Assembly (NCBI GenBank): GCA_021163765.1
Contig: JAGGTK010000033.1
Coordinates: 5,923-69,922 of the forward strand
DNA from: a bacterium
GTDB lineage: Bacteria; 4484-113
DNA: 64,000 bases
Direction: 5' to 3'
Below, one piece after another: positions 60,317-64,000 of this stretch; the stretch's first letter is position 1; the number at the start of each line of letters is the position of its first letter. The position numbers and the translations under genes are program-made. The notes under the pieces are model-generated. The model saw only the letters and a program-made list of their open reading frames with translations, was not told the DNA's origin and ran no database searches.

Positions 60317-60399
60317 CGCTGTCGGGGCGCGGAACGCTGTGCCTTCCCCGTTGGGTGCGGACGCCTGTCCAGGTTTACCCGCCTATGGAGGGCGTCCGA

Positions 60400-60535
60400 C
60401 CTTCGTTCGCGCCGGCTGGATAGCCGGCGCCACCCGTATTGTGTCCTTTACCGCCAACCGAGTACGCGGTGCTTGCCCGCCATTACGCGCCGCGTGTTCA
60501 GTGACCTTAGTTGGTGGCACGGGCGCTTGCCCGCC
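60400..60535. repeat. REP-like palindrome cluster (copy C)
   Basis: 32-nt near-identical copy of 55201-55232; CGGGC-gctt-GCCCG hairpin at 60520-60533; GCTTGCCCGCC occurs twice (60471 and 60525). Confidence 0.65.
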
Positions 60536-60629
60536 GGAGCCTTAGCGTAGGTTGGTCTCGCCCGTGACTCCGCCTACTTGACAGCCCCCCGAATGTGCTA
60601 GACTGGCATTGGCCGATTGAGGGAGCGAT

Positions 60630-60857
60630 GTGGCGAAAGAGCCTGCCGGTAACGGTGTTAGCCGCAGTGGGGGCCAGAACCCGCAGAATCCCGCGCGCGA
60701 AAACACGCCTGGGCCATCTCCAAATACACCCAATGCCGGGACAGCCAAAGCGCCGCCCGCGCAGCCCGATGCCACCGCCGCGTCCGTGCGTTCCTGGAGC
60801 AGCACGACGAGTCGCCGGCGTAGAAAGCGCCCGCTTTCTGCGCGGGTGAGTCGCTAA
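60630..60857 (+). CDS. Possible small disordered basic protein
   Basis: TTGACA...TG-C-TAGACT promoter-like element (60578-60604) and GAGGGAG RBS before GTG; no recognisable domain. Confidence 0.3.
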   Translation: MAKEPAGNGVSRSGGQNPQNPARENTPGPSPNTPNAGTAKAPPAQPDATAASVRSWSSTTSRRRRKRPLSARVSR

Positions 60858-61052
60858 GGATTACTCGCCGGATGCCCCATACGTTCCCGAATAACGCTGT
60901 CTGCTAGAATAATCGCGCCTTAAGAGGGCTGTGCCCTGCGTGTATTCTTTTCGAAGCCCGCAGGGCTCCTTTGCGTCCAGGCTTCCGGCGGCAGCGTTCG
61001 CCAGCGGGATTCCACAGTCCAGTTCCGCGCGTTCCTTCGGGATGCGTGCTTT

Positions 61053-64000
61053 CTAAATTGCTCCCAGCTTCTCGCGCAGCAGCTCTATCGCGTCAGGCAG
61101 CTTGCTTGCGTCGCGGCCACCCGCTTCGGCGAACGCGTCCGCTCCGCCGCCGCCGCCGCCGAGAATCTTCGCCATGTCGCGGACAACCGCGCCCGCCTTG
61201 ACCCCACTTTCGGGAAGCTCCGGCGAAAACCTTAGCGTCAGCGAAACCGACTTCTCGTCCTTGCGGACAATCAGCACGGCGAACGGCTTCTTGCCCGCCT
61301 TCGCGAGCTCCCGCGCCGCCCGGTCGATGACGTTTTTCACGTCGTCCTTGCCCGCGCCTTCAAGCTCCACCGCCACCAGCGACACTTTGCCCGCCATCTC
61401 CGGCTCGGCGACCTTCGGCGCCACCGTGTCGTATAGCGCTCCGCGCTTGAGCACCGCCAGCTCCTGGTGCGTTTCCTTCAGCTCGCGGCGCGTTTTCTCG
61501 ATAGCCTCTTCGACCTCATTTAGCGGCACGTGGAATTCGCGCATCAGGTCTTCGCCCACCTTGCGGAAATCCGCGAGGAACTTCTGCGCTTCCATTCCCA
61601 CCGCCGCTTCCAGCCGCCGGATGCCGGACTGCACCGATTCTTCCTTCACGATGACGAAGCTTCCGGCCTGCGAGCTGTGCGAGAGGTGCGTGCCTCCGCA
61701 AAGCTCTCGGCTCACCTGAGCGCCCTCCTCGCCCATATTCACCACGCGCACGGTCTCGCCGTATTTTTCGTCAAACACCGCCGTCACGCCCTCGCGCTTG
61801 GCGTCCACGAGCGGCATCTGCTGCGTCCACACGGCGTGGTCCGCCAGCAGTATTTCATTGGTGATGCGCTCCACTTCGCGCATCTGCTCGTCGGTCATCG
61901 CCTCGTAGTGGCTGAAGTCAAAGCGGATGCGGTCGGGGTAGATCTGCGAGCCCGCCTGGTTCACGTGCTCGCCCAGCACCCGCTTGAGCGCCGCAAGCAT
62001 CACGTGCGCGGTGGTATGCGCGCGGGCGATTGCAGTTCGCCGTGTCTCATCCACCTTAAGCTCCACCGTTGCGCCTTCCGCGAGGTTTTCCGCGCCGCCT
62101 TCTTCGAAGAAGCCCAGGTGCTCGCCCATATTCTTGCTGTCCACGACGCGGAAGCGCACGTCTTTGCCGACCGCGTATCCCATATCGCCGGGCTGCCCGC
62201 CGGTTTCGGCGTAAAACGGCGTCTTATCGGTGTAGAGCGCGAATAGCTCCTTGCCCTTCGCCTCTTCCGCGCCCGCGGCGTCCTTTTCCTTCGCGTCGAG
62301 CTTGCCCGTGAACGGCTTTACGCCGCGCACAGTCGCCCTCGCTGTCAGCGTATCGTATCCGACAAATTCAACATCGCCGTTTGCCATCGCGCCTTCCTCC
62401 TCCACCTGGAATTCGGACGTGAACTCCTTGCGCTCCCGCGCCCTGTTGCGCTGCTGCTCCATCTCCGCTTTGAACTCGTCCTCGTCCACCTCGAACCCGC
62501 GCAGCCGCGCCAGCTCCTGCGTAACCTCGAACGGAAGGCCGAGCGTGTCATGCAAGTAGAACGCGAACGCGCCAGACACAGCCCTGCGCTGAAGTTCAAC
62601 AGCTACCGCTCTTAGAGCACTGTCAACGTAGCTCCAGCGTTCTTCCCACTCAGGTGAAAGTTGGAATGTGCCCGGCTGATCTAGAAAACCACCGCCCATC
62701 TGCTGTCCGTTTAATATGACTTGAACGTGCTTGTCTTGTGGAGTATCGGTCACTGGGCATTCGCTACGTACGGTTTCCATTTCATCAATCGCCTTAAGTG
62801 CTTCTTTCCACGCTTCTCCGTGCACCCAGCCTCCGGTTACAATGAGATGCAGATGGTCCCAAACCCCAGTCTCGAGAGAGTTCAGAGCGTCCAATGCGTA
62901 AGTGCTTCTGCCATTCTGCTTCAGTACAGCGAAGTAGTTGTTGATACGCTCCTCAATAGTTTTCTTGAGGTTGACGTCGTAGCCTAGCTTCTCAATGCCT
63001 TTCTCCAGCACCCCCAGGAATCCCTCTTCCTCGCGCGCGAGCCACGTCAGGATATTGTCCTTGCGGCTTGCGAGTTCAGGATACGCGTCGCCCATCTTGT
63101 CGATGATGAGCTTCGCGGGCTCGGTGAGATACGGCTTGCGCACGCCCAGCAGGTACGTCGTCTTCACCACGCGCCTGATCACCCGCCGCAGCACGTAGCC
63201 GCGGTCGAGGTTGCTCGGCGTGATGTTGTCAGCCAGCATAAACGCCGCCGTGCGTATATGATCCGCGCACAGCCAGAACGGCTCGTAGGCGAGCTTGTCT
63301 GGCGCCACGCGCTCATCGCCCGAAGTGCTAGTGCTGAGCGCAGCCGAAGTGCCCGCAGCCAGCTCTTTGAAGTAGCCCACGAGATAATCAAACAGGTCGC
63401 ATTCAAACACGTTGGCCTTGCCCTGCAGCACCGCCGCCAGCCGCTCGAGGCCCATTCCGGTGTCGATATTTTTCTTGGGCAGCGGCGTCATCTTGCCCGC
63501 CGCGTCGCGATTGAACTCCATAAACACGAGGTTCCACACTTCGAGCATCCGCCCGGCTTTTTCCATCCGCTCGAAGTCCTCGCGGCTCTTGCACGGGTTA
63601 CTTTCCGCGCGCTCCATGTCGAAGAAGATTTCCGTGTCATATCCGCACGGCCCGACGTCCGCCGCCGCCCATAAATTGTGCTCGTCGGATAGCCCGAAGA
63701 TGCGGTCGCGCGGCACGCCCGCCAGCTTCTCCCAGAGCCCCGGCGCATTCGGGTCGTTTTCGTGCGTGCTCACATACAGGTATTTCGGGTCGAGCCCCGC
63801 CCACTTCTTGTCCGTCAGGAACTCCCACGCCAGCTCGATGGCCTCGGCCTTGAAGTAATCGCCGAAGCTGAAGTTGCCCAGCATCTCGAAAAACGTGTTG
63901 TGCCGGTTGGTGAAGCCCACGCGGTCTAGGTCGACCGTGCGCACGCACTTCTGGCACGACGCCACGCGCGGCGCCGGCGGCTGCTCCTTGCCCTCGAAGT
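61053..64000 (-). CDS. alaS: Alanine--tRNA ligase (5' end outside the window), with a large internal insertion
   Basis: RVASCQKCVR, RHNTFFEMLGNFSFGDYFK, IDTGMGLERL, RGYVLRR, TPFYAETGGQ, HTTAH, ELCGGTH, GIRRLEA, GGGGG C-Ala domain; the frame continues to the window edge. Confidence 0.96.
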   Translation of the reverse strand, partial: FEGKEQPPAPRVASCQKCVRTVDLDRVGFTNRHNTFFEMLGNFSFGDYFKAEAIELAWEFLTDKKWAGLDPKYLYVSTHENDPNAPGLWEKLAGVPRDRIFGLSDEHNLWAAADVGPCGYDTEIFFDMERAESNPCKSREDFERMEKAGRMLEVWNLVFMEFNRDAAGKMTPLPKKNIDTGMGLERLAAVLQGKANVFECDLFDYLVGYFKELAAGTSAALSTSTSGDERVAPDKLAYEPFWLCADHIRTAAFMLADNITPSNLDRGYVLRRVIRRVVKTTYLLGVRKPYLTEPAKLIIDKMGDAYPELASRKDNILTWLAREEEGFLGVLEKGIEKLGYDVNLKKTIEERINNYFAVLKQNGRSTYALDALNSLETGVWDHLHLIVTGGWVHGEAWKEALKAIDEMETVRSECPVTDTPQDKHVQVILNGQQMGGGFLDQPGTFQLSPEWEERWSYVDSALRAVAVELQRRAVSGAFAFYLHDTLGLPFEVTQELARLRGFEVDEDEFKAEMEQQRNRARERKEFTSEFQVEEEGAMANGDVEFVGYDTLTARATVRGVKPFTGKLDAKEKDAAGAEEAKGKELFALYTDKTPFYAETGGQPGDMGYAVGKDVRFRVVDSKNMGEHLGFFEEGGAENLAEGATVELKVDETRRTAIARAHTTAHVMLAALKRVLGEHVNQAGSQIYPDRIRFDFSHYEAMTDEQMREVERITNEILLADHAVWTQQMPLVDAKREGVTAVFDEKYGETVRVVNMGEEGAQVSRELCGGTHLSHSSQAGSFVIVKEESVQSGIRRLEAAVGMEAQKFLADFRKVGEDLMREFHVPLNEVEEAIEKTRRELKETHQELAVLKRGALYDTVAPKVAEPEMAGKVSLVAVELEGAGKDDVKNVIDRAARELAKAGKKPFAVLIVRKDEKSVSLTLRFSPELPESGVKAGAVVRDMAKILGGGGGGADAFAEAGGRDASKLPDAIELLREKLGAI

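Follow-up and report, generated by a model that had tools for sequence, protein, structure and literature searches.

An apparently mosaic alaS gene with a 134-codon in-frame insert beside its tRNA-reading motif

Alanyl-tRNA synthetase (AlaRS) selects its tRNA through one base pair, and the few residues that read this pair are almost invariant across evolution. How does an alaS gene come to hold a large, low-GC, in-frame insert right beside the motif that does this reading, and what does the insert do to the enzyme? The question is raised by a bacterium of the GTDB lineage 4484-113, in a 64,000-nucleotide stretch of assembly GCA_021163765.1 (contig JAGGTK010000033.1, positions 5,923 to 69,922; here, "the window"). 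An earlier annotation made from the letters alone, which we call the sequence-only reading, had taken the segment for a foreign domain recently inserted into the helical tRNA-recognition region and had offered a domesticated mobile element, a spliced element or an added function as its possible nature. Our analysis favors, with somewhat more confidence than doubt, a mosaic alaS that carries an imported patch and encodes a working enzyme, the insert being a tolerated decoration.

The gene occupies positions 61053 to 63998 of the window on the minus strand. The reading frame stays open all the way from 61053 to the end of the window; with the first 49 codons, which fall outside it, the complete coding sequence on the contig has 1030 codons. 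The product scores 746 bits against the TIGR00344 alaS equivalog model (cut-off, 457), which identifies it as an AlaRS, and it matches PF01411 (tRNA-synt_2c), PF07973 (tRNA_SAD) and PF02272 (DHHA1), so that the catalytic, tRNA-recognition, editing and C-terminal parts are all represented. It is also the sole PF01411 match in the host genome, a metagenome-assembled genome (MAG) of 1.9 Mb in 99 contigs that is 78.6% complete, with a contamination estimate of 0.23%.

The insert covers positions 62583 to 62984 on the minus strand and encodes AlaRS residues 339 to 472, an orphan sequence with a net charge of -7. It is bounded by two anchors, one ending in GIEKL and the other beginning with AVSGAF, and the 134 residues between them are those that the sequence-only reading had counted; the coordinates given there, 62586 to 62987, describe the same stretch one codon off. 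The insert splits the Pfam model between model positions 374 and 378, and alignment places it between residues 378 and 384 of the Escherichia coli enzyme, one short helix upstream of the equivalent of Asp400 and about ten residues from that key Asp.

In composition, the segment stands apart from its surroundings. Its GC content is 0.51, and its GC content at third codon positions (GC3) is 0.52, against GC3 values of 0.77 to 0.97 upstream and 0.87 to 0.97 downstream in the adjoining 30-codon windows, and the earlier observation of a low-GC segment is confirmed. The host alaS has a GC3 of about 0.85. For 134-codon windows, the genome mean is 0.72 (standard deviation, 0.08), and a GC3 as low as that of the insert occurs in 0.7% of such windows in the long open reading frames (ORFs) of the genome. 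The frame was stop-free in only 15 of 20,000 base shuffles (p ~7.5e-4), and the remaining five frames hold 8, 8, 4, 7 and 7 stops.

The sequence-only reading had proposed an alignment with the AlaRS of relatives as a check and had noted that conservation across the lineage would speak against a recent arrival. With the surrounding 267 residues as a query, we found alaS in 38 of 41 relatives, and in each of them the two flanks lie only a few codons apart. In an alignment of 11 relatives that includes both same-genus genomes, 11 residues stand opposite the 134, for a net gain of about 123 amino acids. Protein and DNA searches did not find the insert in any of the 23 other genomes of the phylum, and by protein, six-frame and DNA searches it is single-copy in its own genome. 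Conservation across the lineage was thus not seen, and the suggestion of a recent segment of foreign composition, lying in the tRNA-recognition helices (Mid2) of the single alaS that the genome yielded, is supported by its absence from the same-genus genomes and from the rest of the phylum alike.

In a genome-wide screen for step-like, low-GC3, in-frame segments, no family of such inserts emerged. The screen did return three other long frames with an internal GC3 step of similar size (drop of 0.26 to 0.27), of 998 amino acids (contig C47), 1245 amino acids (C19) and 704 amino acids (C13). These look like surface proteins or proteins of unknown kind, and they share no similarity with the insert in alaS.

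The most informative feature of the locus lies outside the insert. The diverged tract is wider than the insert itself, running from about codon 332 to codon 489 (approximately 62532 to 63005), and it includes stretches that are homologous to AlaRS. On the left, EKGIEKL (62985 to 63005, minus strand) is homologous to ERGYEDL of relatives, with the codon changes CGG to AAA, TAC to ATT and GAC to AAG. On the right, AVSGAFAFYLHDTLGLP (62532 to 62582, minus strand) is homologous to ALSGKFAFTLHDTYGFP of relatives; its changes include AAA to GCG and ACG to TAC, and it holds the motif that reads the G3:U70 pair. Outside the tract, alaS is 91 to 97% identical in DNA to the two same-genus genomes, and in the 81 codons just outside it this identity is 0.91 to 0.92. 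In the 24 AlaRS-homologous codons inside the tract, identity to the bacterium's own genus is 0.57 to 0.62 and identity to another order is 0.53 to 0.56; over the same codons, other members of the family are 0.67 to 0.86 alike among themselves. Amino acid replacements affect 8 of 30 flank codons versus 4% in the rest of the gene, and four flank codons differ from those of relatives at all three bases (CGG/AAA, TAC/ATT, AAA/GCG and ACG/TAC).

Because point mutation is an implausible source of such changes at a background divergence of a few per cent, we read the tract as imported whole. Judged by its sequence, alaS has the form of a mosaic gene, with an abrupt, two-sided drop in identity inside a gene that is otherwise close to its relatives. 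The foreign segment of the sequence-only reading would therefore stand, but plain insertion would not: the event appears to have been a replacement that brought recoded AlaRS flanks and an altered DTYGFP motif along with the insert. In this replacement, a patch of about 475 bases (approximately 62532 to 63005) would have taken the place of about 105 bases of native alaS. It would have entered by recombination, with crossovers in two conserved segments, one beginning with REEEGF and the other ending with PFEVTQELAR. The donor, we suggest, was a distant, lower-GC, unsampled alaS allele whose Mid2 helical hairpin already bore a large insertion at its tip. No very exotic donor is needed to explain the insert's composition, since one genus of the same family has an alaS GC3 of 0.53.

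One alternative dispenses with a donor alaS allele altogether. Foreign DNA that was never part of an alaS gene may have been inserted in place, after which the neighboring codons changed by compensatory evolution. Such a history would fit the fact that no donor alaS with this insert is known, as well as the GC3 of the flanks (0.73), which matches relatives and not the insert, and the replacement of Tyr and Phe by Leu in the reading motif could be a packing adjustment to a new stalk. It sits poorly with four flank codons in which every base is changed, although the gene otherwise diverges by 3 to 9%, and with flanks that are as far from their own genus as from another order. Nor was source DNA for the insert found, in any frame, in this genome or the phylum. 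We consider this route improbable.

An abrupt break in identity could also be an artifact, in which assembly or binning joined part of the alaS of a different organism in the sample to this contig. The sequence-only reading had named an assembly chimera as the finding that would undo it. The MAG is indeed fragmented and incomplete, a foreign piece that is alaS-like at both ends would stay in frame, and the insert has been seen in no independent sample. A chimera would, however, need two switches 475 bases apart between sequences that are only about 55 to 60% identical at the joins, in a genome with a very low contamination estimate. Moreover, the identical 1030-amino-acid protein is recorded on three contigs (in NCBI, JGI/IMG, Logan and ENA), the longest of which, at 161,830 nucleotides, is twice the length of the present contig. 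This argues against a one-off chimera, and we rate an artifact of this kind as highly improbable.

Size and position make a mobile or spliced element worth considering, and several types were tried and rejected. For an intein, no Hint or intein family was matched in Pfam at E ≤ 1, and the ends agree with the earlier remark that intein termini are missing: the first residue is Gly rather than Cys, Ser or Thr, and the last residues, QRR, are followed by Ala, in place of a terminal (His-)Asn followed by Cys, Ser or Thr. For a group I or group II intron, Rfam gave no match at E ≤ 1, the predicted RNA folding was no stronger than in shuffled sequences (z-score, -0.12), and the frame is significantly open. 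An intragenic repeat element, of the miniature inverted-repeat transposable element (MITE) or Rickettsia palindromic element (RPE) type, is at odds with a sequence that is single-copy by protein and DNA and whose boundaries have no repeats, direct or inverted. For an insertion like ShiLan with a hidden nuclease, there is no open alternative frame, and no HNH or other nuclease was found in Pfam, PHROGs, NCBIfam or PADLOC. An 88-amino-acid antisense ORF of the insert matched no family in PHROGs, the only library run for that ORF. Neither the spliced element nor the domesticated mobile element of the sequence-only reading is supported by these results.

The same results bear on the broader idea of a selfish in-frame homing element, whether an atypical intein or a ShiLan-like element with a hidden nuclease, that spread with co-conversion of its flanks. 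The insert is of mini-intein size, it adjoins a highly conserved functional motif of an essential gene, and its flanks came along, as they do in homing. Against this stand its ends and the missing Hint match, the absence of any nuclease family from the four libraries, the 4 to 8 stops in each alternative frame, the antisense ORF with no PHROGs match, and its single-copy state. We find a homing element hardly credible here.

The insert sequence matched nothing significant in Pfam, PHROGs, NCBIfam or PADLOC; its only PHROGs matches, to two families of unknown function (E = 0.096 and 0.27), are no better than chance. A protein-language atlas search, word-indexed searches at near, longer and AlaRS-like lengths, and tblastn against phages returned no relative of it, and it was not found in scans of genome, metagenome and viral contigs or, as an exact 28-mer, in metagenomes. 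A phmmer search of 1.84 billion representative proteins gave six weak matches (E = 3.5e-5 to 8e-4). All six are repeat proteins whose scores are summed over 5 to 7 stretches, and four of them are WG_beta_rep proteins. Neither these 1.84 billion representatives nor the collections of genomes, metagenomes, phages and viruses thus yielded a convincing relative. Searches of representatives can overlook AlaRS proteins that bear the insert, because the 90%-identity cluster of this AlaRS is represented by a 244-amino-acid C-terminal fragment from a 935-nucleotide contig.

The weak matches do offer a lead. A stretch at 62601 to 62690 (minus strand), which includes GFLDQPGTFQLSPEWEE, may resemble a single WG-type beta repeat unit. 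A hidden Markov model (HMM) that we built from WG repeats scores this stretch at 10.1 bits, a value reached by none of 2,000 shuffles, although the comparison is circular in that the model was built from proteins picked for their likeness to the insert. Pfam's own WG_beta_rep model (PF14903) has no match to the insert at E ≤ 1. We treat the resemblance as a lead only.

We next consider what the patch may have done to tRNA reading. In the E. coli enzyme, Asp400 binds the 2-amino group of G3, roles have also been assigned to Tyr399 and Gly403, and Asn303 is the major-groove reader of U70 (PMC6055181). By alignment to that enzyme, the equivalents of Asn303, Asp400 and Gly403 are intact in the present AlaRS. 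The Asn lies, unchanged, in TPSNLDRGY (63195 to 63221, minus strand), and the Asp and Gly are kept in HDTLGLP (62532 to 62552, minus strand), a changed version of the (Y/H)DTYGFP motif. Within this motif, the near-invariant DTYGFP has become DTLGLP, with Leu at both the Tyr402 and the Phe404 positions; 11 relatives and 20 diverse AlaRS sequences all keep Tyr and Phe, or His and Phe. On the tRNA side, all three tRNA-Ala genes are canonical, each with G3:U70 and A73. The Asp that reads G3:U70 and the insert are predicted to lie at opposite ends of the hairpin, with the insert projecting outward, so that the enzyme most likely remains active and charges tRNA-Ala normally.

The predicted structure suggests how so large a segment could be accommodated. 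In an AlphaFold2 model made from an alignment of 12 sequences (mean predicted local distance difference test [pLDDT] score, 76.9), the native Mid2 helix that ends at GIEKL runs unbroken for about 24 residues into the insert. The resulting outgoing stalk helix (62913 to 63062, minus strand; model residues 78 to 127) has block pLDDT values that go from 94 to 73. It is followed by three short helices (block pLDDT, 61 to 78) and then by a 30-residue low-confidence cap or loop with a short beta-hairpin (62667 to 62756, minus strand; model residues 180 to 209; pLDDT below 50), where a single-sequence model also puts short strands. A returning helix of 22 residues (62589 to 62654, minus strand; model residues 214 to 235; block pLDDT, 73 to 85) leads back into the AlaRS fold. 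Together, the helix extension and the returning helix are modeled at pLDDT 73 to 88. A fold search with the larger AlphaFold2 model returned only AlaRS, and the single-sequence model of the insert (pLDDT, 46.6) was too poor for such a search.

Under the account that we prefer, the insert would be translated and kept in the mature enzyme, where it would lengthen both flanking Mid2 helices into an acidic antiparallel stalk with a small helical and loop cap, a shape predicted by the model. From the direction of the helices, rather than from a model of the complex, the stalk would project away from the tRNA. The insert's net charge of -7 argues against a direct RNA-binding role. We regard the insert as a probable surface decoration that the enzyme tolerates.

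Is this loop used in the same way elsewhere? In a set of 62 alaS loci of named genomes, the 14 Rhodothermales-group loci whose match spans the loop (Rhodothermales, Rhodothermaceae, Longimonas and one Bacteroidota MAG) all cover about 27 to 42 codons more than is typical, and in nine aligned Rhodothermales loci the loop has 53 to 63 residues versus 11 (42 to 52 additional amino acids). The acidic helical loop insertion of this order comes in at least two sequence types. We also sampled 158 genomes from about 140 families, in which a large split at the loop occurs only in the present genome and in one other, G141, from another candidate phylum. The alaS gene of G141 encodes 164 residues between the same two anchors, compared with the typical 11 (net gain, about 150; L082:1837-2280 on contig C80). 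That insert is helical and acidic, has the composition of its host gene, and is absent from the two other genomes of its phylum. The present insert has no sequence similarity to the Rhodothermales insert by HMM or to the G141 insert by BLAST. No similarity was detected among the three, and all are net acidic (-2 to -14). Because unrelated inserts sit there in separate lineages, the Mid2 loop is a permissive spot with repeated use, although large inserts at it are uncommon.

This recurrence raises the question as to whether the insert is more than tolerated. It could be a selected functional module, one allele from a set of acidic cassettes that are exchanged at the acceptor-stem reading head. 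Such cassettes might be retained or turned over for their effect on the encounter with the tRNA or on a surface that some phage factor, toxin or inhibitor attacks. Large, unrelated and uniformly acidic inserts at exactly this loop in three separate lineages would fit such a role, as would the co-imported changes within the reading motif itself. On the other hand, the phylum shows no diversity at the site, with all 23 other genomes lacking the insert, and only one further large insert turned up among the roughly 140 other families. We also know of no agent that targets AlaRS at this surface. We judge a selected module unlikely, though it is the alternative that we take most seriously. A more sweeping version, in which a whole class of acidic helical AlaRS cassettes moves between distant lineages with a retuned reading motif and is kept by selection, seems to us decidedly doubtful. 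If it were true, selection might act on the cassettes for tRNA discrimination or release, for example, or for escape from a phage or toxin factor that docks there, and AlaRS would be the target of an unrecognized conflict.

Several points weigh against our preferred account of an imported patch in a working enzyme. None of the collections searched yielded a donor or a homologue of the insert, which is known from a single sequence. The Tyr402 and Phe404 equivalents of a near-invariant motif are changed, so full activity is not assured, and at 78.6% completeness the MAG could have a second alaS that is unassembled. The two same-genus relatives themselves diverge more at silent sites in the flank region than over the gene as a whole (0.43 versus 0.21), and the GC3 of the flanks is ordinary. 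For both reasons, silent sites alone do not prove import, and the argument from the flanks rests instead on the multi-base codon changes and the amino acid replacements. Finally, the modeled cap is of low confidence; it is uncertain because only one sequence fills the alignment columns of the insert and because the model made from that sequence alone is poor.

Three further observations concern alaS and its surroundings. A second variable patch of the gene lies at 63320 to 63410 (about AlaRS residues 196 to 225), in the linker before the tRNA-recognition domain, where GC3 dips to 0.63 and where comparison with one same-genus genome shows an indel and reduced identity. Between alaS and a convergent panD-like gene, positions 60317 to 61052 form a gene-free spacer of 736 bases (GC, 0.6 to 0.68), in which no tRNA, Rfam family, promoter-like site or terminator-like site was found. 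Another sampled genome, G146, has a normal alaS plus two short AlaRS-like pieces with frames of 111 and 161 amino acids (C14:602870-603354), which may be a gene fragment or pseudogene.

What makes the locus worth attention is that a large foreign segment adjoins the reader of G3:U70, with two near-invariant neighbors replaced, in what is nonetheless the organism's only known alaS. An active enzyme would amount to a natural experiment on how much the reading head tolerates and would provide a permissive site ready for use in domain insertion. Alongside the unrelated inserts that other phyla carry at this loop, the segment belongs to a recurrent pattern in which synthetase genes acquire add-ons of foreign composition.

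Among known systems, the insert is a further case of two kinds already described, the lineage-specific insertion and the mosaic housekeeping gene. In-frame elements that resemble it differ on closer comparison. The ShiLan insertion of phage methylases is in frame with its host gene and conceals an HNH nuclease in a different frame (PMC11855218). Like it, the alaS insert would be a non-splicing insertion, translated as part of the host frame and with a predicted position looped out from the host fold; unlike it, the alaS insert has neither an open alternative frame nor an HNH or other nuclease signal. With a mini-intein, the alaS insert shares its size of about 134 residues, its in-frame position next to a functional motif conserved in an essential enzyme, and its co-transferred flanks, but it has none of the defining sequence features and is expected to stay in the protein.

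Closer in kind are the lineage-specific insertion modules of aminoacyl-tRNA synthetases, which are also add-ons in a universal enzyme. The Rhodothermales and G141 inserts, in particular, are in-frame, translated, helical and acidic, at the same position (E. coli residues 378 to 384) in a surface hairpin of a conserved fold. The present insert differs from them in being confined to one species representative, in its foreign composition and in its recoded flanks; that of Rhodothermales is common to 14 loci of the order, and that of G141 has the composition of its host gene. For the patch as a whole, the nearest parallels are penA and pbp2x, mosaic chromosomal genes that arose from interspecies homologous recombination. 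As in those genes, identity drops abruptly over a short internal stretch of an essential gene that is otherwise near-identical. The patch in alaS, for which no donor lineage was found and no selective agent is known, differs in bringing 123 extra codons.

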